Of a stretch of DNA of 64,000 bases, positions 25,344 through 41,502 are shown piece by piece (the stretch's first letter is position 1; the number at the start of each line of letters is the position of its first letter). The stretch comes from a virus. The stretch spans positions 1 through 64,000 of IMG/VR virus record IMGVR_UViG_3300026189_001009; one strand, written 5' to 3'. The translations under genes were made by a program, and so were the position numbers. The notes under the pieces were generated by a model, which was given only the letters and a program-made list of their open reading frames with translations, was not told where the DNA came from and searched no databases.

Positions 25344-25344
25344 C

Positions 25345-25372
25345 TTGACTTTGTACATTTTTCTGTTATAAT
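25345..25372 (+). promoter_or_regulatory. sigma70-type promoter for clpP
   Basis: TTGACT-N16-TATAAT with extended TG. Confidence 0.65.
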
Positions 25373-25396
25373 AATGGAAAGAAGGATATAATAATT

Positions 25397-25987
25397 ATGA
25401 GCAATTTAATACCAATGGTTGTAGATCAAACCTCTAGAGGCGAAAGAAGCTATGACATTTATTCAAGACTATTAAAAGAAAGAATAGTTTTTGTAACAGG
25501 ACCAATAGATGATAATGTTTCTAGTGTAGTTTGTGCCCAATTACTATTTTTAGAATCACAAGATCAAAATAAAGAAATTTTTATGTACATTAATTCACCG
25601 GGCGGAGTTGTAAGCTCAGGATTAGCTATGTACGATACAATGCAGTATATTAAACCAGAAGTATCAACAGTATGTGTTGGGCAGGCCGCATCGGCTGGAT
25701 CATTACTATTAATGGCAGGTGCACCTGGTAAAAGAATATCATTGCCTCATTCAAAAATTATGATACACCAACCATCAGGTGGTTTCTCAGGACAAGCAAC
25801 TGATATACAAATTCATGCACAAGAAATACAAAGAACTAAAAAAACGTTAAACGATTTATATGTTAAACACTGTGGCAAAGATCTTAAAACAATCGAAGAT
25901 GCTATGGAAAGAGACAACTACATGAATCCAGAAGAAGCATTAAAATTTGGATTAATTGATAAAATTGAAACTTCACGTGATGTGTAA
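25397..25987 (+). CDS. clpP: ATP-dependent Clp protease proteolytic subunit
   Basis: [30 protein letters not shown] (Ser), IMIHQP (His), ERDNYM (Asp). Confidence 0.97.
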
Positions 25988-26685
25988 TGTCATACGATAT
26001 ATTTCATTTAAGCTACAAAGAAACCTATGCAGATGATACTTACTCGTCTTTAAAACAAAAGTTCCCATGGGCTAGAAGAGTCAAAGGAGTTAAAGGAATC
26101 TTCAATGCTCATCAGCAATGTTCAAGACAAGCATATACAGAAATGTTTTATGTAGTTGACGCTGATGCTGATTTAAATTCTAACTTTGATTTTTCTTATA
26201 AGCCAGACATATATGATCTAGATAAAATTCATGTATGGAGATGTCAAAATCCAGTTAATAATTTAGTATATGGATATGGTGGAGTAAAGTTATTTCCAAC
26301 AGCACCTTTAAAAAATGCAACAGATTGGCACATTGATTTTACAACATCTGTTGGTGGTAGTAACAAATTTAGGCCAATGCCAGCAGTTAGTAACACAACC
26401 AGGTTCAACACAGATCCTTTTAATACATGGAAAAGTGCATTTAGAGAATGTACTAAACTATCAAGCAAAATCATTGAAGGACAGAAAGATGATGAGACAG
26501 ATGCCCGACTAAATATTTGGTGTACTGAGGGAGAGAGCAAACCACACGGAAAGTACGCAATTCATGGAGCAAAAGAAGGCAGAGATTTCGGCTTGAAATA
26601 TAGGAACGATTCTGCTAAACTAAACTTAATAAACGATTTTGAGTGGTTAAAGGCTCAATTCGAGGAGAAATATAATGCTGACTAA
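25987..26685 (+). CDS. glycosyltransferase-like protein
   Basis: FYVVDADA DxD, NPVNNLVYGYGGVKLF, WKSAFREC. Confidence 0.6.
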   Translation: MSYDIFHLSYKETYADDTYSSLKQKFPWARRVKGVKGIFNAHQQCSRQAYTEMFYVVDADADLNSNFDFSYKPDIYDLDKIHVWRCQNPVNNLVYGYGGVKLFPTAPLKNATDWHIDFTTSVGGSNKFRPMPAVSNTTRFNTDPFNTWKSAFRECTKLSSKIIEGQKDDETDARLNIWCTEGESKPHGKYAIHGAKEGRDFGLKYRNDSAKLNLINDFEWLKAQFEEKYNAD

Positions 26686-27391
26686 TTACGATGAGTTTCA
26701 TGATTTTTTTGAAAGATCTGCAATATTATCTGGAACAGAGTATCATAATGATTATATGAAAACTATTAGGTTTTTTCCTGAAGCCAATTGGAAAGATGCG
26801 TTTAGTAGAGGACAGTTAAGAAGTAAACAATGGATAGTCGACACACTACAACATTTAAATAAACCGCTAGGTACTGTATACCTTTGTGCAGGTTGGTATG
26901 GTACTTTAGCATATATGCTTTTTCAAAGTAATATCAGTGTAGATAGAATTAGAAGTTTTGACATAGATGAGTCTTGTTGGAGAATTGCTGAAAGACTAAA
27001 CAAGAAGTATGTAGATCAGGGTTGGAGATTTAAAGCATCAACAGGTGATATACATGATATAACATATTCAAATCAATATGCAGGTAACAGACATTTTACT
27101 ACTATGAGAAACAATGGCACACCAGTAGCAACATGGGATCCAGGAGATCCAGATACGATTATCAACACTAGCTGTGAACACATTAGAAATTTTAATTCTT
27201 GGTATAATGCTATACCTCAAGGTAAACTTTTAATTTTACAAAGTAATAACTTTTTTAAAATTGAAGATCATGTTAATTGTTACAATAATGTACAAGAATT
27301 TATAACTGATTGTCCTATGTCTGAACTACAATTCGCTGATGAACTTGATTGCGGTGAATACAACAGGTTCATGATCATAGGACGAAAGTAA
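26675..27391 (+). CDS. class I SAM-dependent methyltransferase-like protein
   Basis: LCAGWYG, IRSFDID, IINTSCEH, LQSNN. Confidence 0.75.
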   Translation: MLTNYDEFHDFFERSAILSGTEYHNDYMKTIRFFPEANWKDAFSRGQLRSKQWIVDTLQHLNKPLGTVYLCAGWYGTLAYMLFQSNISVDRIRSFDIDESCWRIAERLNKKYVDQGWRFKASTGDIHDITYSNQYAGNRHFTTMRNNGTPVATWDPGDPDTIINTSCEHIRNFNSWYNAIPQGKLLILQSNNFFKIEDHVNCYNNVQEFITDCPMSELQFADELDCGEYNRFMIIGRK

Positions 27392-28470
27392 TGTACAATT
27401 ACGAAGACATTAGAACAATACATCTTGAAATAACTCAAAAGTGTCAAGCGGCTTGTCCTATGTGCGACCGTAATATGAACGGTAAAGGAATTAATCCTCA
27501 TATCAATCTTAATGAATTAAAATTAGATGATTGTAAAAAAATTTTTACTCCTAGTTTCGTATCTCAGTTGAAGAAGATGTATATGTGTGGTAACTTAGGA
27601 GATCCTATTGTTGCAGACGACACACTAGAAGTATTTGAATATTTCAGGCAACACAATCCAAACATATGGTTGAATATGCATACCAACGGTGGTGCTAAAA
27701 AACCTGACTGGTGGAAACAGTTAGCAAAAGTAATTGGTGAAAATGGCGATGTTACTTTTAGTGTAGATGGATTAAAAGATACTAATCATCTATATAGACA
27801 AAATGTCAATTGGGATATAGTTGATCAATCAATGAGAGCTTATATAGAAGGCGGCGGAAAAGTTAGATGGGACTACTTAATTTTTGATCATAATCAGCAT
27901 CAAGTCGAAGAAGCAAAACAATATGCAGAATCAATTGGAGTACATAAATTCCAAGCAAAAAAAACTGGAAGATTTATTTCAGCAAGTAGTGAAAAGAAAG
28001 ACCAACACCAAGCAGTTAGTAGAAAAGGTAAGGAAACAACGTTACTTAAAAAGCCAGATGAAAAATATCAAAATAAAGAATTATCAAAACAAGAATTACT
28101 AATACAAAAATATGGATCAATGGACAAGTATTATGATAAGGCATCAATATGGTGCAAAGTAAAAGATGAAGGTAGCTTGTATATTAGTGCAGAAGGATTA
28201 GCATTACCTTGTTGTTGGACAGCAGGTCGTATGTACAAGTGGTGGCATAAAGATCCTAAAGTAGAACAAATATGGAATTACATTGACTCAGTAGGTGGTA
28301 AGCAAAATTTAGATGCAACGCAAAATGGATTACAACAAGTTTTTAAATCAGGTATATTTGATCAAATTGAACAAAGTTGGAACATCGATGGTTGCAGTAA
28401 CGGTAAATTAAAAGTGTGTGCAATGAAGTGTGGAACAGGGTTTGATCCGTTCACATCTCAATTTGCATGA
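27391..28470 (+). CDS. radical SAM protein, C-terminal Twitch/SPASM-like
   Basis: CQAACPMC; C-terminal C...PCC...CAMKC. Confidence 0.9.
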   Translation: MYNYEDIRTIHLEITQKCQAACPMCDRNMNGKGINPHINLNELKLDDCKKIFTPSFVSQLKKMYMCGNLGDPIVADDTLEVFEYFRQHNPNIWLNMHTNGGAKKPDWWKQLAKVIGENGDVTFSVDGLKDTNHLYRQNVNWDIVDQSMRAYIEGGGKVRWDYLIFDHNQHQVEEAKQYAESIGVHKFQAKKTGRFISASSEKKDQHQAVSRKGKETTLLKKPDEKYQNKELSKQELLIQKYGSMDKYYDKASIWCKVKDEGSLYISAEGLALPCCWTAGRMYKWWHKDPKVEQIWNYIDSVGGKQNLDATQNGLQQVFKSGIFDQIEQSWNIDGCSNGKLKVCAMKCGTGFDPFTSQFA

Positions 28471-28495
28471 TTTAAAATAAGGTAAGTATAGTAAA

Positions 28496-29962
28496 ATGTC
28501 TAATAAATTACCATCAAAAACTTTTTGTGCTCTACCTTGGATGCACTTATCAACAAGACCAGACGGCAATATGCGAGTATGCTGTACAGCTAATGCAAGT
28601 AGTGTCGGAGCAACCAATGATAAAAAACATGGTGGACAAGTAGGTGTATTAAAGAAAGATGATGGTGTACCTGCAAACTTAAACAATTCAGATTTAATGT
28701 CATCGTGGAATAATGACTACATGAAGAATGTACGTTTACAAATGTTAAATGGTGAAAAGCCACCAGCTTGTTTAAAATGCTTTAAAGAAGAGGACGCAGG
28801 CCATAACTCAAAACGTATGTGGGAAACTGACTATTGGTTACATAGATACAGTATAGATGAAATTATAGGCGAAACAAAAGAAGATGGATCTATTCCACCT
28901 AAGATTAGATATATTGATTTACGTATGGGATCCAAATGTAATTTAAAATGTATCATGTGTTCGCCACACGATAGTTCACTTTGGGTAAAAGATTGGTTAG
29001 ATGTATATCCTACAATTGAAAATAAAAATTTAAAACAAACTATGGGGTGGGATAACAAAGGTAAAGTACATGGCGCCGCTTATAACTGGCACAAAGACAA
29101 TAAAGTATTTTGGGATCAGTTATATGATCAGATACCTCATATGTATCAACTATATTTCGCAGGTGGTGAGTCAACTATTATTGAAGAACACTACACACTA
29201 TTGGAAGAAGTTATCAAACGTGGTTATGCACACAAGATAGAATTACGTTATAACTCAAATGGTGTTGAGATGCCAGATAGATTATTTGAACTATGGAGTC
29301 ATTTTAAAAGAGTAAGGTTTCATTATAGTGTAGACTCAATTGAAGATATGAATCGTTATATTCGTTTCCCAGCAGATTGGGATAACACAGTTAAGCAGTT
29401 TCATTTATTAGATAATACAGATGATAAAGTAGAAGTAACAATAGCCTGTGCAGTACAGGCCTTGAATATACACTACATACCTGATTTTATCAAATGGAAG
29501 TGGAAACAAAATTTTAAGAAGATAAACATATGGCCATTTGGTGCCGGTATGTTAAACTATCACTTTGTTTATTGGCCAGGACAATTAAATGTTAAAGCAA
29601 TGCCACAATGGATGAAAAACAAAACAAAAGAAAAATATGAAGCATTTTATCCGTGGTTAGAAGAAAACTGGCACTTGTCGGGTGCACCGAGCAAAGAAGA
29701 ATTCATGAATGCCAGTTATGGTATAAAAAGATTAAAAGGCATGATTCAGTTTATGATGAGTGAAGATTGGTCTAGACGTATGCCTGAGTTTAGAGAATAT
29801 ATTACAAAGTTTGATAAACAACGTGGAACAGATTTTGCTAAAACTTTTCCAGATATGGCTGGAATGTTAGATGAATCATTAGACTATAGTGTTAAGCCAA
29901 TCACTGGTGAAAGTGTTGATCAAAAAACTGAGAAAGAATTGGAAGATGGCGACACTATATAG
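28496..29962 (+). CDS. radical SAM protein, N-terminal Twitch domain
   Basis: FCALPW...VCC...CLKC; CNLKCIMC; FAGGE. Confidence 0.9.
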   Translation: MSNKLPSKTFCALPWMHLSTRPDGNMRVCCTANASSVGATNDKKHGGQVGVLKKDDGVPANLNNSDLMSSWNNDYMKNVRLQMLNGEKPPACLKCFKEEDAGHNSKRMWETDYWLHRYSIDEIIGETKEDGSIPPKIRYIDLRMGSKCNLKCIMCSPHDSSLWVKDWLDVYPTIENKNLKQTMGWDNKGKVHGAAYNWHKDNKVFWDQLYDQIPHMYQLYFAGGESTIIEEHYTLLEEVIKRGYAHKIELRYNSNGVEMPDRLFELWSHFKRVRFHYSVDSIEDMNRYIRFPADWDNTVKQFHLLDNTDDKVEVTIACAVQALNIHYIPDFIKWKWKQNFKKINIWPFGAGMLNYHFVYWPGQLNVKAMPQWMKNKTKEKYEAFYPWLEENWHLSGAPSKEEFMNASYGIKRLKGMIQFMMSEDWSRRMPEFREYITKFDKQRGTDFAKTFPDMAGMLDESLDYSVKPITGESVDQKTEKELEDGDTI

Positions 29963-31238
29963 TAAAACATTTTGTCCTTTACCTTTTATGCACAGTCATC
30001 ATTCTGTGGCAGGAAAGTTCAAACCTTGCTGTAATGCCGAGTCACCTCCGCACAAAGGTAATCCTTATACCACCAAAGATCATTCATTGTTTTCTTGGTT
30101 TGACAGTGAACCAATGCAACAGCTACGAAAAGATTTATTAAACGGTGTACAAAATCCTATGTGTAGTGTCTGTTGGAAACAAGAAGCAACTGGAGGAAAA
30201 AGCTATAGGCATAGTTCTTTAATCAAAGTAAGTCAAGATAATGGTGCATTCAAACAATCACATTTAAAAGAACCAAAGATTACTTTTTTAGATTTAAAAT
30301 TTAGCAATGAATGTAACTTTGCTTGTAGAATGTGTGACTATACTAATTCTCATCAGATATTGAAAGACATGGTTGCCTTAGAAGATAGCAATGTAGAATT
30401 ACCAAATCACTGGAGAAGAAGTCCTACGCAAGAAAAATATGCTGATCCTAAAACAGGTATATTCAGCTCATTAACTATAGAAGATGTTTTACGAGCATTG
30501 CCAACAGTAAGAATATTAAAAGTGACTGGCGGCGAACCTATGATTAGCAAACCATTTTTAACACTACTTGACCATGCAATTGAAAAAGGTTACACAGATC
30601 AGATTAACTTATATATTACTACTAATGCAAGTAAGTTCAATGATAGAATCATGAAAAAGATTTTGAAGTTTCGTAAGGTATACTTTACTGTAAGTTGCGA
30701 TGGATATGGCACTACATATGACTATATCAGATATCCTTACACATGGAAGATGTTCAGCAAAAGAATAGTTGACTTTCTTGAAGCACATCAAAATAAGCAT
30801 GATACGATACGATTGGGATTTTCGACAGTACCACAAATTTACAATATAGAAAACATACACAAACTCACTCAATGGATAGCTGATTTAGATAAAAAGTATG
30901 GAGCCATGGACGGTGACGGGCAAAGCAAATGTTTTATATCACATCATATACAAACACATTTATGGCCTACAACTTCAGAGCTACAATATTATAATGCACC
31001 ATTAAGCATATTAAAAAATACACATGATGCCTTACAAAAACTTTTAGAGCAAGATACTAGCAGAGACTTTGAAAGTTTCTTGAATTCTTTAAAACACTCC
31101 ATTGACAATTACAGTGATGTATCATCTGAAACAAACAAAGATATTATAAAAACAACAGTTGACATCGATAAAGTTAGAAATCAAGATTACAGTAATCTAT
31201 TAGAAAAGGAAACAGTAAAATGGCTGAACACTCTTTAG
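29946..31238 (+). CDS. radical SAM protein, N-terminal Twitch domain
   Basis: FCPLPF...PCC...CSVC; CNFACRMC; TGGEP; ATG start at 29946. Confidence 0.9.
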   Translation: MATLYSKTFCPLPFMHSHHSVAGKFKPCCNAESPPHKGNPYTTKDHSLFSWFDSEPMQQLRKDLLNGVQNPMCSVCWKQEATGGKSYRHSSLIKVSQDNGAFKQSHLKEPKITFLDLKFSNECNFACRMCDYTNSHQILKDMVALEDSNVELPNHWRRSPTQEKYADPKTGIFSSLTIEDVLRALPTVRILKVTGGEPMISKPFLTLLDHAIEKGYTDQINLYITTNASKFNDRIMKKILKFRKVYFTVSCDGYGTTYDYIRYPYTWKMFSKRIVDFLEAHQNKHDTIRLGFSTVPQIYNIENIHKLTQWIADLDKKYGAMDGDGQSKCFISHHIQTHLWPTTSELQYYNAPLSILKNTHDALQKLLEQDTSRDFESFLNSLKHSIDNYSDVSSETNKDIIKTTVDIDKVRNQDYSNLLEKETVKWLNTL

Positions 31239-33367
31239 ATAAAACACTGTATCAAAACAAACATAGTTCTTTGTATGACTATGAGTTTCAAAAGCATTTA
31301 GCAAAAGCACCATGGAAAGAATGGTTAAGTGAGTCAGGATACTTTGAAGTCAAGACAGAATATCTTGAAGCTATACACAAATGGATTCATAGTACTGAAT
31401 TAAATGAAATAAAAGGTCTTGATCGCTTTAAACATAGAGATATGATTAGCGGAACAACTCAAGCATTTGATGAAGCATACTATAGATATTCAAGAAAACG
31501 ATTGAGAATTTTAAGAGGTGAATATGCTTATCATAAACGAGTTAACAAAGACTCTGTGAAAAATTTAAATATTGTTAATGACTTTGAGTTTCTTGATGAT
31601 GAACAAGGCAATTACATACCTGTAGAAGAAAACGATTGGGTCATTACAAGTTACCCTTTTTGTGGTAACGGTGGTATACCTCCTCATTGGGATACGTTGC
31701 AAGATGATTGTTTGCAAAAACAAGTACCTATTTTATTAGACTGTGCATGGTTTGGAACTTGTAGAGATATTAATCTTGATGTGAACCATTCGGCTATCAC
31801 GGAAGTATGTTTTAGTTTAACTAAAGGAATAGGATTAGGAAATATCAGATCTGGTATAAGATACTCAAATTATGATGACAAGCTACCAATTAGACAGCAG
31901 AATGAATACAATCATTTGCCACTTGGTGCGGCACAGATTGGTCTATGGCAAATGCAAAAGTTTAGCCCTGACTATGTTCAAAACAAATATCATAAAGTGT
32001 ATGAACACGTCTGTCAAATAAAAAGCATAAAGCCAACGAACTGTATTCATATCGGAGTGTTAGACAAATCACATCCTGAATATGAATATTATCTAACCGA
32101 CAGAGTTCATAGCAAAGTTGGTATGCGTAATGCAGTTAAAGATTTTTACAAAAGAAATCCAGATCCTGTTTTTTGTAAAGCACCATTTACTAGCATATAT
32201 TATAAAGGTGGACAAAATTCAGTAGGATTTTGTTGTGCTCAAGAAGAGACAGTTGAACTAAACAAAGAAAAGTCAGATAATTTGCGTGAATGGTGGAACA
32301 GTGATTACTCAAAAAACTTTAGACAACAGTTTATAGATGGCAAGTGGCCATATGAATGTAGAATATGTGAGTGGCAAGAAAATAATGATATAGATAGTGA
32401 TAGGTCTGGTTTCGATCATATAGATATTGAATATATAGACAACGTAACTGGCAACGATCTAAACAAACCTATATACATAGATTACAGACCAGATAACTTA
32501 TGTAATCTAATGTGTACTATGTGTTCGCCTAGTAACAGTAATCTTATTGAAAAAATTTACAAAGCCAACCCTGAAGTATTTGGAGAACAACAAGACTACA
32601 GCTTTCAACAAGAAACACAAGACAAGATTCTTAAAGACAACATGATTGATAGCGATACAGCATTATTAAAAGTGCTAGGTGGGGAACCAACTATCAATAA
32701 AAAAGTTCATCAAGTATTTGACTACTGTATACAAAATGATTATGCAAAAAACATAGATTTAAAAATGACAACCAATTTTACTAACTTGAACAATACATAT
32801 CAAGCAATAGAAAATTTTAAATCTATAAAAATTCAAGCCAGTTGCGATGGTACTGGTCCTACATATGAGTACATTAGAAAACCAGCTCGTTGGAAAAAAA
32901 TTAAAGAGAATATATTAGAATTTTCTGAAAGATATAAAGATGACAAGAGATTTAGATTTGGAATGAACTGTGTGTTCCAGCCAGTTAATGCATTTACAGT
33001 CAAAGACTGGTTACCGGAACTGTTGACTTTGTATTATGATCAAATGAAAGTGCCAATGGGTAATATGAGCATATTAGCAATTACAGGTCCGGATGGAATG
33101 ACATTTGAATCAATACCACCAAAGTTTAGAGAAATAATTATTGCTGACTTACAAGATGTGCAACAACAATTTAAAAATCATTCGAATGAACTTTTAAAAA
33201 AGAATATCACAAGCATGATTTCGTATGTCAATGATTTTCATAGCTACAAGCCTAGAAAGTTAGAAAGATTTAAAATAAAAACCAAAACATTTGATATTGC
33301 AAAGAAAACGGACATCACAACTTTGCATCCATTGTTTACCGAACTACTTAATTACAATGAAAAATAA
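31220..33367 (+). CDS. fusion: PLP fold-type I domain + Twitch + radical SAM
   Basis: LLDCAW, FSLTKGIG...RSGIR; FCKAPF...FCC...CRIC; CNLMCTMC; LGGEP. Confidence 0.85.
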   Translation: MAEHSLDKTLYQNKHSSLYDYEFQKHLAKAPWKEWLSESGYFEVKTEYLEAIHKWIHSTELNEIKGLDRFKHRDMISGTTQAFDEAYYRYSRKRLRILRGEYAYHKRVNKDSVKNLNIVNDFEFLDDEQGNYIPVEENDWVITSYPFCGNGGIPPHWDTLQDDCLQKQVPILLDCAWFGTCRDINLDVNHSAITEVCFSLTKGIGLGNIRSGIRYSNYDDKLPIRQQNEYNHLPLGAAQIGLWQMQKFSPDYVQNKYHKVYEHVCQIKSIKPTNCIHIGVLDKSHPEYEYYLTDRVHSKVGMRNAVKDFYKRNPDPVFCKAPFTSIYYKGGQNSVGFCCAQEETVELNKEKSDNLREWWNSDYSKNFRQQFIDGKWPYECRICEWQENNDIDSDRSGFDHIDIEYIDNVTGNDLNKPIYIDYRPDNLCNLMCTMCSPSNSNLIEKIYKANPEVFGEQQDYSFQQETQDKILKDNMIDSDTALLKVLGGEPTINKKVHQVFDYCIQNDYAKNIDLKMTTNFTNLNNTYQAIENFKSIKIQASCDGTGPTYEYIRKPARWKKIKENILEFSERYKDDKRFRFGMNCVFQPVNAFTVKDWLPELLTLYYDQMKVPMGNMSILAITGPDGMTFESIPPKFREIIIADLQDVQQQFKNHSNELLKKNITSMISYVNDFHSYKPRKLERFKIKTKTFDIAKKTDITTLHPLFTELLNYNEK

Positions 33368-34643
33368 TTTTTGCATATTACCGTTTATTCATTTAAGCAC
33401 TAGAACAAATGGTGCAATGCAATTGTGCTGTCATGCAAATAGTGGCAGTGGACCTGACTACAGAAAGATTGGATGTAATAGAAAAGACACAGGAGAATTA
33501 GTTTATGTTGATCAAGACAAACCATCAGAATACTGGAATACTGAATACTATAAAAATATTCGTAAAAAGTTTTTGGAAGGCAAAGCCCCTAAAGAGTGTA
33601 GGGCTTGTTATAAAGAAGAAGCGTCAGGCTACAGATCAAAAAGACAATGGGAAAATGAAGAGTGGGCAGAAAAGCTATCATTCGATGAAGTACTTGCAGG
33701 AGTAGAATCAGATGGCACGGCACCTTTTGATATCAAGTATGTAGATATGAAACTTGGTAACAAATGTGATCTAGCCTGTTTGATGTGCAATCCAGGTGAC
33801 AGCAGTTTATGGATACCAGATTACAAAAAGCTAATGGAGTCTGATATTAGCGATGAAAGTAAGAAAGTACTAGAATGGAACAAAACAGATGGAAAACTTA
33901 ATTGGTATAAATCAGATAGTGTATTTTGGGAAGATATTAAAAGTAGATTGGATACTATAAAGAACTTTTATATAATAGGAGGAGAACCAACTATCAATAA
34001 AGAGTTCAAATCATTCTTGGAAATGTGCGTCAAATCCGGCTATAGCGACCATATAAACCTCCGTTTTAATACGAACGGGCTAACGGTGTCAGATGAACTT
34101 GCAGGGCTATACAGCCGCTTTAAAACGTGTTTAATCCACCTTTCTTTAGACGGGATAGCAGAGCATTATAACTTGATTCGTTATCCAAGTAATTGGGAAG
34201 ATATGAAAGAGAAATTAAATCATTGGGATAAAGTTTCAGCTAATATTAAAGTTACAATTGATGCAACTGTAAGTGTGCTAAATGTCATGCACATTGACGA
34301 ATTGATAAGATGGAAAGTAATGCAACGATATGACAAAATCAACTGCTATCCAACTAACAATGGATTAATTGGTATGCACTTTTTACATAGCCCTAATTTT
34401 TTAAATATAACAGTATTACCTAAAGAACTTAAAAAAGAAGTTGAACAAAAAATAAGACATTTAAAAAATTGGATTGATGTAATTGGCGGCGAAGGTTATG
34501 CTAAACTTGATGCCTTGGTTAATTTTATGAACAGTAAAGACAACAGTGATCTTTGGCCACAAACTGTAAAGTATTTAGACAACATGGACAAGATAAGAAA
34601 TACTAATTGGAGATCGGTATTAACAGAATATGAAAACTATTAA
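33357..34643 (+). CDS. radical SAM protein, N-terminal Twitch domain
   Basis: FCILPF...LCC...CRAC; CDLACLMC; IGGEP; ATG start at 33357. Confidence 0.9.
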   Translation: MKNNFCILPFIHLSTRTNGAMQLCCHANSGSGPDYRKIGCNRKDTGELVYVDQDKPSEYWNTEYYKNIRKKFLEGKAPKECRACYKEEASGYRSKRQWENEEWAEKLSFDEVLAGVESDGTAPFDIKYVDMKLGNKCDLACLMCNPGDSSLWIPDYKKLMESDISDESKKVLEWNKTDGKLNWYKSDSVFWEDIKSRLDTIKNFYIIGGEPTINKEFKSFLEMCVKSGYSDHINLRFNTNGLTVSDELAGLYSRFKTCLIHLSLDGIAEHYNLIRYPSNWEDMKEKLNHWDKVSANIKVTIDATVSVLNVMHIDELIRWKVMQRYDKINCYPTNNGLIGMHFLHSPNFLNITVLPKELKKEVEQKIRHLKNWIDVIGGEGYAKLDALVNFMNSKDNSDLWPQTVKYLDNMDKIRNTNWRSVLTEYENY

Positions 34644-36129
34644 GGAAAGACACAAATACAAACCAGAAGATTTATACTATCAAAATCTTTCTGAAAAGAA
34701 TGATTCATGGTGTCCACTACCTTGGGCTCAAGTGGCTGTTCATAATTCAGGAGAATACAGAAGTTGTATACAAGCAAGAACTTGTAAAAAAACAAAAGGT
34801 ATTTTGAAAGATGATAATGACAATGTTATGAGAGCAGATACGCATTCAATTGATGATGTAAGAAATGCTCCTTTACTAAAAGATGTTAGGAAGTCTATGC
34901 TTGACGGTGAACGTCATAGTATGTGTGTTCGTTGTAACGATGAAGATGATGCTAAGATGGCCTCGAGAAGAAGAAATGCTATTAGAGAATACTATAACAA
35001 ATATAACTATGATTATTGGAAAGCTGAATCAAGCACAATGCCTGATGGTACTTTAGTTATAGATAAAGCACCTGTCTTAGAATGGGATATTAGATTAGGA
35101 AACCTTTGCAATATAAAATGTAGAATGTGCCATCCTAGTGAAAGTACACAGTGGTACAATGAATGGTTTGACACAATGTTTCAAGGATTTAAAACTGATT
35201 TTACAAGAGTAGAACTGTTCAAAGACAAAAACAAAGTTAAACTAAAAAATGACATATACCAATGGAATGACATACCTTATTTCTTTGATCAATTTGACGG
35301 TTCAGCTTCGGGTACAAAAAAAATATACTTTTCCGGAGGAGAGCCAACACTAGTAGAAAATATGTATACTATGTTACAAAAATTAATTGATGCCGGCATA
35401 TCAAAAGATATGGAACTAGAGTATAACATCAATCTAACCAACATACCCAGAAAAGCAATTGAGCTATGGCACGAATTCAAAAGTGTACAAATTGGTGGAA
35501 GTATTGATGGCATTGGTGAAACTAACGATTTTATTAGATATCCTGCAAAATGGAAAAAGATTCAAGAGAATATAGAATGGCTTGATGTTAATACCAAACC
35601 GAATATTAATATGTTTAATACATTTACATGGCAAATATTAAATGCAACTCAAGTATTTGATCTAGTTAAGTGGCAAATAGAAAACAATTTTGTTAAGTTT
35701 AATAGAACTGTTAACAGTGTTTTCTTTAGTATGCATTTTTTACACTCTCCATCATACTTAAATGTTAAAGCATTACCAAAAGAATTAAAAGAACACGTAC
35801 AACAAGAGTTTGAAAAGTTTGATAACGAATGGTTTAAACCTTGGATAGCAAAAGCTGGCAAGAATTATAGGTTGAAAAATCAATCATATCAGTTTAGTAT
35901 TGATGAATGGAACAAAGGACAGTTATGGGATGATGATCCACATGAATACTATTTAAAATTTAAAGACAAAATGGAATCTATGTTAAAGTTTATGTGGAGT
36001 GAAGATTTATCACATGATTTTAACACATTTATTGAGATAACAACTAAACAAAACGAGTATAGAAAACAAACAGCAATGTTTGAACGATTATATCCGGAAA
36101 TAAGTACATATATAAGAAGGAACAAATAA
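34630..36129 (+). CDS. radical SAM protein, N-terminal Twitch domain
   Basis: WCPLPW...SCI...CVRC; CNIKCRMC; SGGEP. Confidence 0.9.
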   Translation: MKTIKERHKYKPEDLYYQNLSEKNDSWCPLPWAQVAVHNSGEYRSCIQARTCKKTKGILKDDNDNVMRADTHSIDDVRNAPLLKDVRKSMLDGERHSMCVRCNDEDDAKMASRRRNAIREYYNKYNYDYWKAESSTMPDGTLVIDKAPVLEWDIRLGNLCNIKCRMCHPSESTQWYNEWFDTMFQGFKTDFTRVELFKDKNKVKLKNDIYQWNDIPYFFDQFDGSASGTKKIYFSGGEPTLVENMYTMLQKLIDAGISKDMELEYNINLTNIPRKAIELWHEFKSVQIGGSIDGIGETNDFIRYPAKWKKIQENIEWLDVNTKPNINMFNTFTWQILNATQVFDLVKWQIENNFVKFNRTVNSVFFSMHFLHSPSYLNVKALPKELKEHVQQEFEKFDNEWFKPWIAKAGKNYRLKNQSYQFSIDEWNKGQLWDDDPHEYYLKFKDKMESMLKFMWSEDLSHDFNTFIEITTKQNEYRKQTAMFERLYPEISTYIRRNK

Positions 36130-36130
36130 T

Positions 36131-37876
36131 ATGCAACCAAATGATTTATACGATTGGGTACCAGATAAAGGCGATAGAGCACCAAATCATAAAGATATAC
36201 AGCTTTGGAGAGACGAAAAAGGTCGCACTATGTTTGAGTATGGCAGAGTTGATAGACTAGAACTAGAATTTAACAACACTTGCTTTTTATATTGTGGAGG
36301 ATGTGGTAGAACATTCAATCCAAAGATTGAAGCGGCAGGAAAACGAATTATTTCGTTAGAAGATATTAAAAGATTCTTTCCACCGGAGTTTTGTAAACAG
36401 CTAAGATGGTTTTTAAGTTGTGGTAACTACGGAGAACCAGCCGCACACCCAGAAGCATTAGAAATTCTTAGATGGTTTAGAGACAACGGAACTAAAAATG
36501 TTTCATTTAGTTCAAATGGTAGTTCTAGAGATCCTGCATTTTGGAAAGAAGCCGCTGAAATTATTAATGGACCGGGCGGATCTAGAGATAATATTCAAAA
36601 CTACTATGGCGGTAGAGTTACTTTTAGTATTGATGGCTTAGAAGACACTAATCATTTATATCGTATTGGTGCAAAATGGGATAAGTTAATGGCAAATACA
36701 GAAGCATTTATCAATGCTGGCGGTAGAGCAAGATGGCAGTTTATTACATTCAATCATAACTCACATCAATTGCAAAAAGCTAAAGACATGGCTAAAGAAC
36801 TTGGGTTCAGTGAGTTTATTGAGAAGATGAGTTTTAGATTTATACCAGTACGTTTAGGTAAACGTCATGCAGAGCAATTGGCCGACGAGGCGGAAATGGC
36901 AATGATCAAAGAAAAAGAAGCCAGAGTAAGAGCTGAAAAAAATGATCTGCTTGATCCTAGTTCTGGTAGAGTTAAACACAAACAAGAAGAATTAGAAACT
37001 GAACACAAAATGGTTAAAAAAATGGGTGGCGTAACTGAACACGTAATCAACATTGATGAAGAAAGAAAGAACAGACATCCTGACAGAGAAATGTTAGCGG
37101 CACAAAGAGCTAAAGGTACCAAAGGTGTAAAAGGTGTTGACCATTTTTCACAAAAGCATAAAATTGTTTGTCAAAATAGAACAGAACCAAGAATTTATGT
37201 TAGCTTTGATGGTAAGGTTTGGCCTTGCAACTGGTTAGGTGGTATAGAATACTATGAAAGAGATAAAAATCCTTACAAGCAACACTGGCCAATACCTAGT
37301 ATGGTACACCATGGTCCTGAAAACGGTGTGCCTATGGACTTCAATAGTTTGTATGCACAAGATCCAAATGATCCAAGTCCAGTTAAAACAATATTAGAAA
37401 GTCCATGGTACAGTCATTTACTTGAAGAAGACTGGCAAAGATCAGATGATCCTAACGGATCTTTACAACCAGCCAAGTGCAAACAGATGTGTCATACAGA
37501 ATTAGGTACAGGTATATTTGAAAAGATGCGTAGAAACGAACAAAATTTAAAGACTGGCGAGTATAGTGATGTAGCTAAAACACATGGACTGACACCACCA
37601 CAAGGTGGATCAGGATTTGGTCCAGGCTCAGCTATGGAAGTTGATGAAAGCAAAATGTTTAAAGTTGAGGACATTGTTGCAAATGAAAATTATGATACAA
37701 ACGAAGAAGGTAAAATTATTGATGAAGATGATGTTAGATTTTACAAATATTATAAAGAAGTAGCGCCTGGAAAGTTTGTTACAACTAGGGTTGATGATGA
37801 AAGAGGCTATAAAAATTTTGAGAAACATACTCTAGAGAATCACGAGCACAGGCATGATCACGACAAAGATGACTAA
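36131..37876 (+). CDS. radical SAM protein, C-terminal Twitch-like, with insertions and His-rich tail
   Basis: CFLYCGGC; CGNYGEP; VC...WPC...CKQMC; HEHRHDHD tail. Confidence 0.88.
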   Translation: MQPNDLYDWVPDKGDRAPNHKDIQLWRDEKGRTMFEYGRVDRLELEFNNTCFLYCGGCGRTFNPKIEAAGKRIISLEDIKRFFPPEFCKQLRWFLSCGNYGEPAAHPEALEILRWFRDNGTKNVSFSSNGSSRDPAFWKEAAEIINGPGGSRDNIQNYYGGRVTFSIDGLEDTNHLYRIGAKWDKLMANTEAFINAGGRARWQFITFNHNSHQLQKAKDMAKELGFSEFIEKMSFRFIPVRLGKRHAEQLADEAEMAMIKEKEARVRAEKNDLLDPSSGRVKHKQEELETEHKMVKKMGGVTEHVINIDEERKNRHPDREMLAAQRAKGTKGVKGVDHFSQKHKIVCQNRTEPRIYVSFDGKVWPCNWLGGIEYYERDKNPYKQHWPIPSMVHHGPENGVPMDFNSLYAQDPNDPSPVKTILESPWYSHLLEEDWQRSDDPNGSLQPAKCKQMCHTELGTGIFEKMRRNEQNLKTGEYSDVAKTHGLTPPQGGSGFGPGSAMEVDESKMFKVEDIVANENYDTNEEGKIIDEDDVRFYKYYKEVAPGKFVTTRVDDERGYKNFEKHTLENHEHRHDHDKDD

Positions 37877-38964
37877 TGAAGAAAGACAGAATCATATATC
37901 CAAAGTGCATGGACAAGACAAAACCCAAGGCAACGTATATTACACATGATGGTTATGTAAGGCCTTGTTGTTTTTTACATAGGCACAATGCCGTTGAAGG
38001 CGATGAAAGATGGCTTAATGATGATAAGCACAACTTACATTCCGGAAAGTCTATGAAAGAAATATTTGAAACAGAAGAATATATAGATTTTTTTGAAAGA
38101 TTGCGAACTGGTAAAAATATTCCAGAAAGATGTATTGATGTATGTAAGAATTCTAAAAGAAGCTTTAATGTTGTAGGTGGTTCAAACGATACACGTAAAG
38201 AAAGAAAAATTGAAGGACTAGAACAGTATCAAGCATTTCATGATACAAGTGACCACTATGAAGATGAATATAGTGTAAAACATAAAATACAAATCGATGC
38301 TACTCATAGGTGTAGTTTATCGTGTTCAAAATGCAACAGATTTATTAAAGACTTTAAAGATCACTATACTGGTAAGAAACATAAATTGGGTCATCATGTT
38401 CTTTTAAAAGATGAAGTTTCAGTTGAACACTTTACAATGATTATAAAAGAAGTAAGAGCAGTTGCTGACCGTATAGGAAAGCATATACCTGATGTAGATT
38501 TTTGTGGTACTTGGAGTGACGCCATTTATCACCCAGACTTTATTGAGCTTGTCGAGGTAGCAAAGAAACATGACTTCGCAGTTTCGATTGCAACGAACGG
38601 TTCTCGGAAAAAAGACAGTTGGTGGGACAAACTATATTCATTGCTTGATCCTAAGTATGACAGTGTTGTATTTGGAATGGATGGCCTTAAAGACACAGCA
38701 CACATATATCGTAAAAATATTAAATTCGATGATGTTGTATATGCAATGGGCAAAGGTGGCGAACTTGGATTTAGTAAAAACAAATGGCAGTTTATAGTTT
38801 TTAACTTCAATGAGCATCAAGTCAATGAAGCGATACAATTATCAAAACAGCTTGGAATAAAATTTGAAACAATTAAGTCAGCGAGATGGTCAGGACCTGA
38901 CGATCCTTTAATGCCGTCGAAAGCATGGTTACCACAAAGTGTAATAGAGGAATATAATTTGTAA
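37876..38964 (+). CDS. radical SAM protein with permuted (N-terminal) Twitch-like domain
   Basis: PKC...RPCC...CIDVC precede CSLSCSKC; CGTWSD, FGMDG, WQFIVFNFNEHQV. Confidence 0.88.
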   Translation: MKKDRIIYPKCMDKTKPKATYITHDGYVRPCCFLHRHNAVEGDERWLNDDKHNLHSGKSMKEIFETEEYIDFFERLRTGKNIPERCIDVCKNSKRSFNVVGGSNDTRKERKIEGLEQYQAFHDTSDHYEDEYSVKHKIQIDATHRCSLSCSKCNRFIKDFKDHYTGKKHKLGHHVLLKDEVSVEHFTMIIKEVRAVADRIGKHIPDVDFCGTWSDAIYHPDFIELVEVAKKHDFAVSIATNGSRKKDSWWDKLYSLLDPKYDSVVFGMDGLKDTAHIYRKNIKFDDVVYAMGKGGELGFSKNKWQFIVFNFNEHQVNEAIQLSKQLGIKFETIKSARWSGPDDPLMPSKAWLPQSVIEEYNL

Positions 38965-40052
38965 TGTTTAAAACACAAGACATCGATGAAATTATGATTG
39001 AGATTACAAGTAATTGTAATGCTATGTGTTTGGACTGTGGCAGAAACCTTGACGGAGTAAAATTAAATCCAAATTTAAAATTTGGCCATGCAGGTAATAT
39101 GAAACTAGAAGCATTTAAAAAAGTATTTGATCCAGCAGTTTTGCCTAAACTTGGCAAAATACATTTTGATGGAAACTTTGGTGATAGCATGATACACCCT
39201 CAAAGCATGGAGTTCATCAAACACATGGCAGAAAACTTTCCTGGAATAGAATTAGAAATTAATACCAATGGTGGTTATCATAGTACTGATTGGTGGAAAG
39301 AACTCGGCGAAGTAACATCTAAAGCATTTAATGAAGAAACTGAAATTAAGTTTGGTATTGATGGTATTGATAATGAAACACATGACAAGTATAGAAGAAA
39401 TGTTAAGTTTGATAAGATTATAGAAAATGCCAAAGCATTTATTGACGCAGGCGGAAAAGCATCATGGAAATTTTTGGAATTCGATCATAATCATCATCAA
39501 CGTGATGAGGCAGAAAAACTTGCTAAAAAATTAGGCTTTAATAAATTTCGTGTTAAAAAAACGAGATGGAGAGAAAAAGCCATAAGAAAAGCAACTGGCG
39601 AAGAACAATTTATATTTGGTAATGCTAGTAAAAAACATAGCAAAGAAAAATATGGTGGTATTCCAGATACACAACAAGCATACGTAGATAAAGTCAAAGA
39701 GCAGTTAAAACAGTTTAAAGATTTTACAAATGAATGTAAAATAGAATGTCCATGGTTACAAAGACTAAGATTGCAAATTGAATATGATGGTAGGGTATGG
39801 CAATGCTGTCATTTAAGTGGTAGATATGGTAGTGGTACAGGTTTTGCTAACGAGCAGTATCAGTATTATATTGATAAGCATGGAACTGAATGGAACAATA
39901 TTAATAACAACGATCTTGAAACTATACTAAATCATCCATATTGGGATGACCTACATAATAGTTTTGACAACAAAACAACAGATAAAAACAATCCAAGAAT
40001 AGTTAGATGTGCTGAAAAGTGCGGTCAAGGATTAGAAGAGTTAACAAATTAA
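38964..40052 (+). CDS. radical SAM protein, C-terminal Twitch-like
   Basis: CNAMCLDC; GNFGD; C...WQCC...CAEKC. Confidence 0.9.
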   Translation: MFKTQDIDEIMIEITSNCNAMCLDCGRNLDGVKLNPNLKFGHAGNMKLEAFKKVFDPAVLPKLGKIHFDGNFGDSMIHPQSMEFIKHMAENFPGIELEINTNGGYHSTDWWKELGEVTSKAFNEETEIKFGIDGIDNETHDKYRRNVKFDKIIENAKAFIDAGGKASWKFLEFDHNHHQRDEAEKLAKKLGFNKFRVKKTRWREKAIRKATGEEQFIFGNASKKHSKEKYGGIPDTQQAYVDKVKEQLKQFKDFTNECKIECPWLQRLRLQIEYDGRVWQCCHLSGRYGSGTGFANEQYQYYIDKHGTEWNNINNNDLETILNHPYWDDLHNSFDNKTTDKNNPRIVRCAEKCGQGLEELTN

Positions 40053-40053
40053 T

Positions 40054-41364
40054 ATGTCAGATACATTTTGCCCAATACCTTGGATATTTCAAGCAGTAAG
40101 AAACAATGGTGACGTTCGTATATGCTGTCAAGCAAACGTAACTAAGAACCAAGGTGTAGTCAGACACCCAGATGGAACTTCTTACAATGCTGGTAAAGAT
40201 AACATGGCAGATGCCAGAACAGCAGATTTTATGAATGTTGTACGTAAGAATATGTTAGAAGGTCGTTGGAGTGAAGAATGTGGTAGATGTAAAAGTGAAG
40301 AAGACTCAGGGCTAACAAGTAGAAGACAATATGAACAGCACTGGAACTTTAAACTAGAAGATGCAATTAAAGTTACTAACACTGATGGATCGATTAACAC
40401 TAATGACGTACCTTTGGTATATTACGATTTACGTTTTGGTAATCTTTGTAACTTAAAATGTAGAATGTGTGGTCCAACTGACAGTCACAGTTGGTATGAA
40501 GATTGGTTGCAACTGTATGGTGGTGATGGATTTAAAGACACACACGGTTACGTTAAATTACAAAAAAATAAAAAAGGTAGATTAAGCACTACTGATTACG
40601 ACTGGCATACCAGTGAAAAGTTTTGGGATCATATTGAATCAAATATTCCTAGCATGGAACACGTTTATATGGCAGGCGGCGAACCACTTATGATTGAAAG
40701 ACATTATGACTTTTTACAAAAGTGTGTTGATATGGGTCAAGCAGAAAAGATGAGTATCGAATATAATACTAACATGACAACTTTACAACCTAGGGTAATA
40801 GAATTATGGAAACATTTTAAATCAGTTATAATAGGTGCAAGTGTTGATGGTTATGGTCCTGTTGTAGAATATCAAAGATACCCAGCGAAGTGGTCGATGA
40901 TTAATAAAAATTTACAACAGATCGATGAGCTAGGACCAAATATTAGAGCTTGGTTGGCTTGTACAGTTACTACTTTAAATGTATTTCATATACCAGAATT
41001 CATGAAATGGAAACTACAAGAAAGCAACTTTAAAAAAATAAACTCAAGTAAAAAGAATCCTATTCTAACAATACACGTTGCACACTCACCAGCAACAGCC
41101 TGTATACAATCAATGCCTTTGGAAATGAAACAATTAGTTAAAGAAAAATATGATGACTTTAAAGATTGGTTAATCAACGAAGACTTGCCTGAACACGTAG
41201 TACAATCAGGTCTAAAAATAATCAATGATATAGTTACTTTTATGATGAAAGAGGATCGTTCAGAAAAGTGGGATTGGTTTTGTGAGTACACTAGACAGAT
41301 AGATAAGTTAAGAAATCAAAATATATTAGATGTAGTTCCAGAATATAAAAAATATTTTGATTGA
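40054..41364 (+). CDS. radical SAM protein, N-terminal Twitch domain
   Basis: FCPIPW...ICC...CGRC; CNLKCRMC; AGGEP. Confidence 0.9.
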   Translation: MSDTFCPIPWIFQAVRNNGDVRICCQANVTKNQGVVRHPDGTSYNAGKDNMADARTADFMNVVRKNMLEGRWSEECGRCKSEEDSGLTSRRQYEQHWNFKLEDAIKVTNTDGSINTNDVPLVYYDLRFGNLCNLKCRMCGPTDSHSWYEDWLQLYGGDGFKDTHGYVKLQKNKKGRLSTTDYDWHTSEKFWDHIESNIPSMEHVYMAGGEPLMIERHYDFLQKCVDMGQAEKMSIEYNTNMTTLQPRVIELWKHFKSVIIGASVDGYGPVVEYQRYPAKWSMINKNLQQIDELGPNIRAWLACTVTTLNVFHIPEFMKWKLQESNFKKINSSKKNPILTIHVAHSPATACIQSMPLEMKQLVKEKYDDFKDWLINEDLPEHVVQSGLKIINDIVTFMMKEDRSEKWDWFCEYTRQIDKLRNQNILDVVPEYKKYFD

Positions 41365-41388
41365 TTTATTTAAAAAAGTGTGTATAAT
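41361..41388 (+). promoter_or_regulatory. sigma70-type promoter upstream of tRNA-Glu/mtnN/fpr
   Basis: TTGATT-N16-TATAAT. Confidence 0.55.
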
Positions 41389-41397
41389 AAAAACTGT

Positions 41398-41472
41398 GGT
41401 CCCTTCGTCTATCGGTTAGGACAGCGGTTTTTCATACCGCAAAGAGGAGTTCGATTCTCCTAGGGACTACCA
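41398..41472 (+). tRNA. tRNA-Glu (TTC)
   Basis: GGTCCCT/AGGGACT acceptor stem, GCGGT-TTTTCAT-ACCGC arm, GTTCGA, CCA. Confidence 0.93.
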
Positions 41473-41502
41473 AATTTGAAACAGAACTCAGGAGGAAAAT
41501 GA

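Follow-up and report, generated by a model that had tools for sequence, protein, structure and literature searches.

We have analyzed a tandem array of ten radical S-adenosylmethionine (rSAM) genes, headed by a glycosyltransferase-like (GT-like) and a methyltransferase-like (MT-like) gene, at positions 25987-41364 of a stretch of viral DNA. The window, that is, the whole stretch of 64,000 nucleotides (nt), is the first 64 kb of one 123,631-bp IMG/VR virus record (IMGVR_UViG_3300026189_001009); coordinates are window positions, and those above 64,000 are positions on the record. The array takes up roughly a tenth of the 124-kb record. A conserved core of this array is shared with many phages and with Bdellovibrionota, and the remaining rSAM copies are swapped between relatives like cassettes. 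We tentatively favor a reading in which the array would carry out stepwise radical tailoring of a sugar-bearing molecule.

Organization of the array

Thirteen successive open reading frames (ORFs) run on the plus strand from 25397 to 41364, with junctions of -19 to +25 nt. The first is clpP (25397-25987), encoding a ClpP protease (Pfam CLP_protease, E 2.4e-82); its stop overlaps the start of the GT-like gene, and it is probably co-transcribed with the array. The GT-like gene (25987-26685; 232 amino acids) and the MT-like gene (26675-27391; 238 amino acids) are followed by ten rSAM genes with products of 359-715 amino acids, which we designate R1 (27391-28470), R2 (28496-29962), R3 (29946-31238), R4 (31220-33367), R5 (33357-34643), R6 (34630-36129), R7 (36131-37876), R8 (37876-38964), R9 (38964-40052) and R10 (40054-41364). 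A plus-strand tRNA-Glu gene (41398-41472) forms the downstream boundary. For R3 and R5, the ATG starts proposed in an initial annotation of this DNA agree better with where the family-model alignment begins than do the starts of the longest ORFs. No TATAAATA was found when the sequence of the array was examined. The initial annotation had described ten consecutive, packed or overlapping ORFs with a CxxxCxxC motif, and both coordinates and motifs agree with this: each of the ten proteins contains exactly one such motif.

Two types of radical SAM protein

The Pfam model PF04055 matches nine of the ten proteins at E<=2e-5. Its gathering score of 29.5 bits is exceeded by six of them (R3, R5, R6, R8, R9 with 39.7 bits, and R10), and R1 (28.0 bits), R2 (28.3 bits) and R4 (25.4 bits) fall just under it. 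R7 is the sole member without a Pfam rSAM match, yet it aligns with R1 (E 7e-46) and R9 (E 1e-32). A sharper division is given by the NCBIfam model NF033640 ('twitch domain-containing radical SAM protein', N_Twi_rSAM), which has a curated cut-off of 170 bits. Six proteins pass it at 254-422 bits, namely R2 (422.5), R3 (280.4), R4 (254.2, over residues 316-709), R5 (377.5), R6 (311.4) and R10 (392.5), and these are exactly the six that had been set apart from the other four on motifs in the initial annotation. Below the cut-off are R1 (50.3 bits), R7 (42.4 bits) and R8 (52.7 bits), and R9 has no match. We refer to the six as type A and to the four as type B. Any two type-A proteins share only 20-34% identity, and any two type-B proteins 23-30%. 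The ten genes are therefore, judged from their sequences, old paralogues; the earlier view that they are too divergent for recent duplicates holds.

Type-A proteins have four cysteines ahead of the rSAM core (C6, C24(C25), C76 and C79 in R10 numbering). An alignment of 77 diverse type-A sequences shows no variation at C24, C76 and C79, at the core cysteines C132, C136 and C139 or in the GGE motif, and C6 is kept in at least 90% of them. A Pfam SPASM match is present at the N-terminus of R2 and R5. The four N-terminal cysteines are thus predicted to form a single, fully ligated auxiliary [4Fe-4S] (twitch) site. The same layout, an N-terminal C...CC...CxxC domain followed by CxxxCxxC and GGE, characterizes NF033640 and is found in the six array members and in a seventh copy elsewhere on the record. 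NF033640 is a catalogue entry whose name gives no function, and four of the ten array proteins are not members of it.

In the type-B proteins R1, R7 and R9 the order is reversed: the rSAM motif is N-terminal (CxxxCxxC in R1; CFLYCGGC at residue 51 of R7), and a Cys-rich, twitch/SPASM-like C...CC...CxxxC domain is C-terminal (SPASM match at residues 262-353 of R9). R7 is divergent (PHROG 21308, E 1e-13), with a highly charged insert of ~130 residues between core and Cys-rich domain and a His/Asp-rich C-terminal tail (...HEHRHDHDKDD). R8 combines a type-B core (rSAM match at residues 143-319) with a Cys-rich domain at its N-terminus (SPASM match at residues 18-86). When scored against shuffles, this domain is similar to the C-terminal domains of R1, R7 and R9 (z 3.9-6.3) and not to the type-A N-termini (z 0.6-2.4); R8 is therefore best described as circularly permuted within type B. 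Across both types, every one of the ten proteins combines the SAM-cleaving CxxxCxxC cluster with a twitch-type auxiliary domain of four cysteines.

No sequence relative of R10 or R9 was found among PDB chains at E<=0.1. An AlphaFold2 (AF2) model of R10 (predicted local distance difference test score, pLDDT, 96.0) was compared with known structures using Foldseek and VIA-align. VIA-align matches included anSME (Z 12.7; root-mean-square deviation (rmsd) 4.3, 226 residues aligned), CteB (Z 11.8), BlsE (Z 11.4), SkfB (Z 11.3), DesII (Z 11.1) and MoaA (Z 11.0); SuiB was also among the matches, and the peptide maturases anSME, CteB, SkfB and SuiB span Z 12.7 to 10.4.

Occurrence in nature and selection

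Near-identical DNA was found in marine or seawater metagenomes of 15 studies, two runs of which are possibly the source of the record. Four runs, each from a different study, have contigs that leave none of the 30 bins of 25300-41600 uncovered. These contigs bridge several junctions (e.g., 29623-32506, 33429-36383 and 37495-40464), and none spans the whole block. Among the best-supported 40 of 282 natural differences, 39 are coding, with 32 synonymous and 7 non-synonymous. The array is therefore under strong purifying selection, and it is real. Some contigs skip 2.9-12 kb between paralogous genes, e.g., from 27819 to 36702 and from 28975 to 40993. Their anchoring sides are short (<=39 letters), and we treated them as cross-matches between paralogues or relatives; alternatively, they may represent relatives with fewer cassettes.

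The two leading genes

The GT-like protein matched no Pfam or PHROG family at E<=0.01 and no curated GT family model, and PDB profile searches with the GT-like and MT-like families gave nothing meaningful. Its assignment comes from its predicted fold (AF2 model, pLDDT 91.1). Among the matches listed by Foldseek against the PDB, most are GT-A/GT2 enzymes, with SunS best (E 5.8e-5) and with WrtF, RmlT, TarS, ArnC, GtrB and PBCV-1 A64R also present; ThuS is among the best matches of the model, and the sugar-nucleotide pyrophosphorylases GMPPA/GMPPB stand lower in the list. VIA-align placed it on B4GALNT1 with Z 11.2 (rmsd 2.7, 134 residues aligned). Among viral models (BFVD), the named matches are mostly glycosyltransferases, and the two best (TM 0.89) are domains of 804- and 1076-amino-acid phage proteins. 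A D58xD60 motif is invariant in 26 homologues. The protein thus has in common with SunS, WrtF, RmlT and PBCV-1 A64R a GT-A fold and a DxD motif, although TM-scores reach only 0.35-0.43 and it has a C-terminal helical half of its own. The glycosyltransferase-like label of the initial annotation is supported at fold level, and the gene is predicted to encode a GT-A-fold, DxD-bearing nucleotide-sugar-transferase-like protein.

The methyltransferase label fared less well. The MT-like protein, the product of a conserved core gene of unassigned fold, has no Pfam, PHROG or PDB match; its best PDB profile match of the methyltransferase/aminopropyltransferase fold, thermospermine synthase, is weak (E 0.32). 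What stands is a lead: with an atlas score of 0.95, the protein is linked to a viral cluster that has Methyltransf_31 on 21% of its members, and it may be a Rossmann-type SAM-dependent transferase.

R4 and its N-terminal domain

R4 carries an extra N-terminal domain (residues 1 to ~310) ahead of its N_Twi_rSAM part. This domain is homologous to two ORFs of the same genome, 23162 (23162-24136, plus strand; E 1e-11), a stand-alone paralogue, and 88745 (E 5e-39). The latter adjoins the seventh NF033640 member on the record, ORF 87438 (87462-88730), which is over the 170-bit cut-off; the two form a pair within 87438-89614, beside a GalE-like epimerase/dehydratase gene (E 6e-56) and a GT1-like gene (weak match). 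Adjacent pairs of this kind also occur in other loci.

A profile of this family (27 sequences) was searched against the PDB, with best matches to 3if2 (E 5.8e-4), HisC 3ftb (E 1e-3) and CobD 1lc5 (E 2.4e-3). Fold-type I pyridoxal-phosphate (PLP) enzymes account for 12 of the 19 PDB matches listed. The match spans the region of the Asp that binds the pyridine N of the cofactor and the Ser-x-x-Lys of the Schiff base, and in the family D174 and S199 are invariant and K202 is nearly so. The proteins are ~100 amino acids shorter than typical fold-type I aminotransferases. A PLP-aminotransferase-like::N_Twi_rSAM fusion is thus suggested, though not proven, by the sequence profile.

Core and accessory genes in related viruses

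The initial annotation called the array phage-encoded, which agrees with its place on an IMG/VR virus record and with the affinities of two proteins of this record. The family-B DNA polymerase shares 52% identity with its counterpart in Sinorhizobium phage Phosso (469 kb) and 42% with the one in Agrobacterium phage Atu_ph07 (490 kb); for the ClpA-like protein, the values for these phages are 46% and 44%. Because of these affinities and a CheckV completeness estimate of 23%, the sequence data point to a jumbo phage of ~0.5 Mb belonging to the T4 superfamily. IMG/VR classes the record as 'provirus'. G+C content is ~33%, and nearly all genes of the window are on the plus strand.

A large family surrounds the array. 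R10 has 1544 homologues at E<=1e-5 in a 90%-identity collection and 8913 cluster representatives at E<=1e-3 in a 50%-identity library, and R1 has 3450 homologues at E<=1e-5. In a collection of 50,697 phage records, no DNA near-identical to 25987-41364 was found; tblastn with R10 against the phage records matched only four, every one at <25% identity, and R10 therefore has no close orthologue in the cultured phages of that collection, from which records near this genome may be missing. For a synteny survey anchored on R10, a pattern scan of IMG/VR gave 139 confirmed loci, of which 80 were kept; one locus from a single-protein scan brought these to 81. Each locus is <=21 kb, and many are ended by contig ends. 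Orthologues were called at >=45% identity for R1, >=55% for R2 and >=45% for R3.

The 81 loci contain 3-15 rSAM ORFs each (median 8), and rSAM clusters take 674 of their 1591 non-overlapping ORFs. R1 orthologues are present in 42 loci and R2 orthologues in 50. The GT-like gene occurs in 30 loci and the MT-like gene in 35, a conserved co-occurrence whose absence the initial annotation had named as telling against its reading. A third rSAM type, found in 66 loci, also belongs to the core shared by the viral loci. Orthologues of R3-R9, in contrast, are found in just 0-6 loci (none for the accessory R3, six for R5, three for R6). Many phages thus have the conserved core of GT-like, MT-like, R1, R2 and R10, to which the other rSAM copies are added as exchangeable cassettes. 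Across hundreds of contigs, identities of core members are 50-82%. Five related viral records have 23, 14, 20, 19 and 8 PF04055 matches; two of them, of 383 kb and 342 kb, are estimated to be 100% and 92% complete. No ClpP homologue stands beside the array in the 81 loci, so clpP is no conserved partner; ClpP as a leader protease, which we had considered, was rejected on this ground.

On the present record, a third-type rSAM gene at 69161 is followed by a flavodoxin gene at 70361 (the two within 69161-70810), and a weak rSAM match lies at 95500. In most related phages, the N_Twi/PLP-like pair and the third-type rSAM gene lie within the array, adjoining R10.

The cultured Vibrio phage K566 (255 kb; locus L108) has four N_Twi-like rSAM genes (CNL(A/E)CR(M/I)C) at positions 160319-175239 of its own record. 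They are interleaved with hypothetical genes and lie a few genes from one annotated as the lipid A acyltransferase PagP.

The N_Twi_rSAM family is catalogued, and rSAM cassettes of marine T4-like phages are already in print. Nishimura et al. 2017 (PMC5332604) describe a T4-like environmental viral genome with 12 rSAM genes and Fe-S-related genes, and Zaragoza-Solas et al. 2020 (PMC7029224) likewise mention such cassettes. The passages concerned give no family assignment, core/accessory structure, partners or function. The core and variable complement found here is consistent with the 12-rSAM genome, as far as those passages describe it (PMC5332604). The polymerase and ClpA-like proteins of the present phage are closest to those of jumbo phages of 0.47-0.49 Mb, and not to those of a ~150 kb pelagimyophage. 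Our search of the literature on twitch rSAM, jumbo-phage and pelagimyophage arrays found no paper assigning a function, although supplementary tables of PMC5332604 and PMC7029224 may list the genes, and none assaying any NF033640 member. New here are the measured core/accessory structure, the expansion in Bdellovibrionota, three fusion types, the type-B permutation and the jumbo-phage affinity.

Relatives in Bdellovibrionota

One genome per prokaryote species was scanned with R10-specific peptide patterns, which do not sample phyla other than Bdellovibrionota fairly. It gave 15 confirmed loci with 36-52% identity, on contigs of up to 3.0 Mb; 14 are titled as Bdellovibrionota lineages and one as 'bacterium'. 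The closest cellular relatives found are, by these sequence matches, Bdellovibrionota. Their loci are multi-rSAM arrays with the core: besides R2 orthologues of 64-67% identity, they contain R1, the GT-like and MT-like genes (the latter in L100 and L101) and the third rSAM type. Five Bdellovibrionota genomes have 8-16 NF033640 matches each, 52 of them over the cut-off, in 30 arrays or singletons. In a wider sample at least one member was present in 26 of 121 Bdellovibrionota genomes and in none of 14 control genomes. In a quick tree of R2, Bdellovibrionota rows are basal and paraphyletic and viral rows are nested; its root lies on paralogues with a branch length of 10, and a direction of transfer is not supported by it.

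The contents of these arrays vary. Genes for a UDP-glucose/GDP-mannose-dehydrogenase and a PMT_2 (ArnT-like) protein lie inside the array of L096, and L101 has a fatty-acid-desaturase-family gene and an Asp/Asn-hydroxylase fusion. Across the five genomes, a GT2 or epimerase gene lies within 5 kb of 8 of the 30 N_Twi arrays, against 3.5 expected.

Fusions and conserved neighbors

Fusions were sought among the 150 best representatives of the N_Twi family. P0234 joins a domain of the GT-like type (43% identity, E 1e-52) to an N_Twi rSAM domain, and in P0206 the fusion partner is an FkbM methyltransferase. TPR repeats are present in P0185, and several relatives are rSAM-rSAM tandems. The N-terminal part of P0225 was considered as PLP-like and ruled out on comparison. 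Many relatives (P0207, P0218, P0219, P0227, P0237, P0245, P0264 and others) have an N-terminal extension of ~90 residues in which a helical motif resembling ER..M..DPDCP..VL...D.D..V is repeated; two copies are present in P0213, and in P0206 a single copy separates the FkbM domain from the rSAM domain.

Pfam named little among ten representatives of the neighbor clusters in the viral loci (ThyX, a MoxR/VWA pair and a weak nitroreductase). A 184-amino-acid short-chain dehydrogenase/reductase (SDR) is encoded directly after R10 in 56 of the 81 loci (PDB profile E 7e-6), with invariant Tyr and Lys at the SDR YxxxK spacing. A PP-loop ATPase-like neighbor is found in 32 loci; its assignment is weak but consistent, PP-loop enzymes making up 22 of 23 PDB matches. 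A nitroreductase-like neighbor occurs in 21 loci, and HxD..H oxygenase-like and GT8-like neighbors, judged only by eye, in 20 and 14. Seven frequent neighbor families were sought on the record with hidden Markov models (HMMs) in six frames, and only the nitroreductase-like one was found (58508-59323). Taken together, the partners of the array (GT-A-like, PLP-like, SDR, PP-loop and FkbM) are, on their sequence assignments, overwhelmingly of types that tailor small molecules or sugars, and three of them are fused to rSAM domains.

Flanking genes

Downstream of the tRNA, a PNP_UDP_1-family nucleosidase-like gene (41503-42078, +; Pfam E 6.2e-16) encodes a product that, by analogy, may remove 5'-deoxyadenosine and S-adenosylhomocysteine; among the viral loci, only the close relatives L002 and L003 have this gene after R10. 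The next gene encodes a ferredoxin/flavodoxin-NADP reductase-like (FNR-like) protein (42091-42852, +) with FAD_binding_6 and NAD_binding_1 domains, a candidate, again by analogy, for supplying the electrons that reduce the rSAM clusters. An FNR-like gene follows the array in L001-L003. A gene for an A-type Fe-S carrier is at 81805 of the record.

Upstream, a loosely linked block of tailoring-type genes (16294-25343, +) precedes clpP, and its membership in the system is uncertain. It encodes an aldehyde dehydrogenase, a class-III aminotransferase, a fatty-acid-desaturase-family protein, two Asp/Asn-hydroxylase-like proteins, TauD, a methyltransferase and an FMN reductase; ORF 23162, which is PLP-like, also belongs to it, and so does a weak GNAT match that stays under the cut-off. 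Homologues of several of these genes lie near arrays in a minority of related loci; members of the Asp/Asn-hydroxylase-like family, for instance, do so in 13 of 81.

The only sizeable intergenic gap upstream of the thirteen-gene block holds the best match to a sigma-70-like promoter (25345-25372, +; TTGACT-16-TG-TATAAT, 11 of 12 positions matching). That it drives the block is weakly suggested, because promoter-like sites in the region are overall not above chance (92 found, 89.2 expected).

Proposed function

Twitch-type rSAM enzymes are known to be paired with PLP aminotransferases in amino-sugar and aminocyclitol pathways: BtrN with BtrS in butirosin and DesII with DesI and DesV in desosamine biosynthesis. 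BtrN and DesII abstract hydrogen and pass through keto or rearranged intermediates. The array resembles these systems in having auxiliary-cluster rSAM proteins beside, or fused with, a putative fold-type I PLP-like protein. It differs in lacking membership by sequence (17-18 bits with TIGR04466 for BlsE, which has a cut-off of 400), in the N-terminal position of the auxiliary domain, in having ten rSAM proteins rather than one, and in its orphan PLP-like family, whose matches are to class I/II and not DegT-type aminotransferases. Because of these precedents and the small-molecule and sugar types of the partners, stepwise radical tailoring of a sugar-bearing molecule is the reading that we favor, at a confidence somewhat short of even. 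The GalE-like and GT1-like genes of this record, the sugar-nucleotide dehydrogenase and PMT_2 genes of a Bdellovibrionota array, the GT8-like neighbors in viral loci and the GT2 or epimerase genes near 8 of 30 Bdellovibrionota arrays lean the same way.

The genes from the GT-like gene through R10, perhaps with clpP at their head, would form one operon of a giant marine phage of the T4 superfamily. The substrate would be either nucleotide-activated sugars or a glycan that the GT-like enzyme assembles. Each rSAM protein would take a hydrogen from a particular sugar C-H, and its auxiliary cluster would accept the second electron to give a keto or rearranged intermediate. PLP-like proteins, fused or adjacent, could then aminate this intermediate; the SDR of relatives could reduce or epimerize it, and the MT-like protein could methylate it. 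Building or activating the scaffold would fall to the core, and diversifying it to the accessory rSAM proteins. The nucleosidase-like protein, the FNR-like protein, the flavodoxin (70361) and the A-type carrier (81805) may serve to remove by-products, supply electrons and deliver clusters. As a decoration, the product would be placed on the virion or on the envelope of the infected cell, and the swapping of cassettes would diversify it.

A broader and more doubtful proposal is that of a modular 'radical glyco-editing' system common to giant aquatic phages and predatory Bdellovibrionota. The fixed core (GT-A-like, MT-like, R1, R2 and R10) would make a scaffold sugar, each interchangeable rSAM cassette, in some cases fused to a PLP, methyltransferase or GT domain, would add a different C-H functionalization, and combinatorially diverse glycans would result on the surface of virions or on the envelope of the attacked cell.

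Several observations weigh against sugar tailoring. The characterized NCBIfam equivalogs (anSME, BtrN-like, MoaA, PqqE, mycofactocin MftC, BlsE, NirJ, Tes and viperin) score 15-60 bits against cut-offs of 130-650; no member maps to a characterized family, and individual mapping to unrelated families of that kind is what the initial annotation had named as refuting its reading. The structural matches to the R10 model are generic to SPASM/twitch rSAM proteins (Z 10-12.7), with no family standing out, and peptide maturases score no lower than sugar enzymes. The IspD/MobA nucleotidyltransferases match the GT-like fold equally well (Z 10-11.1), and the methyltransferase assignment is weak. For the PLP-like domain there is no Pfam match, nor is there a precomputed Pfam domain on the best 120 of its 162 homologues, and the assignment draws on E-values of ~1e-3 and conserved Asp, Ser and Lys residues. 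The SDR and PP-loop partners of relatives were not found in this record (HMM, six frames, 123.6 kb). Enrichment of canonical glycan genes in Bdellovibrionota is modest, with none within 5 kb of four of the five largest arrays, and the Asp/Asn-hydroxylase-like, TauD and fatty-acid-desaturase-family neighbors suit protein or lipid targets equally. No RNA datasets matching 26001-36000 were listed, which is uninformative on expression.

Alternative explanations

Most SPASM/twitch enzymes act on proteins or peptides, and SunS glycosylates glycocins. The array could accordingly introduce cross-links, epimerizations or oxidations into a virion protein or a ribosomal peptide, with the GT-like protein glycosylating it as SunS does. 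The peptide maturases anSME (Z 12.7), CteB, SkfB and SuiB are among the top matches and the best overall structural matches to the R10 model, the four-Cys auxiliary cluster is consistent with an electron-accepting role, and the GT-like model has SunS and ThuS among its best matches. There are Asp/Asn-hydroxylase-like and TauD genes in the vicinity, and the phage also has an SbmA/BacA-like peptide transporter, an M17 aminopeptidase and ClpP. The array departs from these maturases in its permuted domain order, its lack of HMM membership and the absence of a precursor gene, for which the operon has no room (largest gap, 25 nt), although a substrate gene could lie at a distance and recognition could be RRE-independent. 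No PqqD or RRE (RiPP recognition element) match was found in the Pfam (E<=0.01) or NCBIfam scans of the ten proteins; the ~90-amino-acid extension of relatives looks, by eye, like a helical repeat and not an RRE; and no CHxS/RGRR protein was found among 615 six-frame ORFs of the record. ClpP lacks the status of a conserved neighbor, and the fusion partners (GT-A-like, PLP-like and FkbM) and SDR and PP-loop neighbors are of small-molecule type. We know of no precedent for ten maturases acting on one peptide. Peptide or protein maturation is thus an unlikely explanation, though the foremost rival to sugar tailoring.

The substrate could instead be a modified nucleotide or the phage DNA itself, hypermodified by a route in which the GT-A/nucleotidyltransferase-fold protein handles the nucleotide and the PLP-like domains process an appended group. 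Phage thymidine hypermodification makes use of rSAM and PLP enzymes, and the tie of the GT-like fold with nucleotidyltransferases would fit such a role. So would the PP-loop neighbors of relatives, with a QueC-like Cys motif by eye, and the nitroreductase-like ones. Prokaryotic viperin is matched weakly (R3, E 1.5e-7), at 31 bits against a cut-off of 180, and viperin and QueE scores are far under their cut-offs. The core is moreover dispersed in Bdellovibrionota chromosomes (8-16 matches per genome), where DNA hypermodification is not expected, and pairs of the 87438/88745 type lie within the array adjoining R10 in other phages. We consider this explanation quite improbable.

We give a similarly low chance to remodeling of lipids or lipid A in the envelope of host or prey, by radical C-H chemistry on acyl chains or head groups. 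Genes of the fatty-acid-desaturase family and Asp/Asn-hydroxylase genes, a family of the LpxO type, are found near arrays in the window, in some viral loci and in L101; a PMT_2/ArnT-like gene lies in L096 and a PagP-annotated gene near the rSAM cluster of Vibrio phage K566. These lipid-type neighbors are limited to a minority of loci (13 of 81 for the Asp/Asn-hydroxylase-like family). The weak matches to the tetraether lipid synthase Tes (R5, E 1.2e-6, 27 bits) are far under the cut-off of 450 bits, and soluble proteins of transferase and PLP type make up the conserved core and the fusion partners.

That the genes are redundant or decaying duplicates without a joint function, as might be read from the differing accessory copies of relatives, is hardly credible given ten intact frames with all cluster cysteines kept, identities of 20-34% that speak of long independent maintenance, the 32 to 7 ratio of synonymous to non-synonymous differences, and core members 50-82% identical across hundreds of contigs.

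Significance and further features of the record

Radical SAM enzymes perform chemically hard C-H functionalizations, and this family is concentrated in giant phages and predatory bacteria, with up to 23 rSAM genes per phage record. Identification of the substrate would open a large block of new enzymology, would explain about a tenth of the record, and could reveal new modified sugars or metabolites on virions or envelopes. The GT-like::rSAM, PLP-like::rSAM and FkbM::rSAM fusions offer experimental entry points, and so do cultured phages in which distant relatives occur (Vibrio phages K566 and K567 and Ralstonia phage RsoM2USA).

The phage also has a proteolysis set of its own: in addition to ClpP (25397-25987), it encodes a ClpX-like protein (6289-7512), the ClpA-like protein (record positions 104619-106850) and an M17 leucyl aminopeptidase (49001-50485). 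A full-length inner-membrane transporter of the SbmA/BacA family, unusual for a phage, is encoded at 14375-15337 (+; Pfam SbmA_BacA, E 5e-134). In bacteria, this family imports peptides and antibiotics. Finally, the gene at 59509-61665 (+) encodes a multidomain protein of 719 amino acids with an N-terminal PHROG 'cytidyltransferase' match (E 2e-48), an NT5C-type deoxyribonucleotidase domain in the middle and a C-terminus without assignment.

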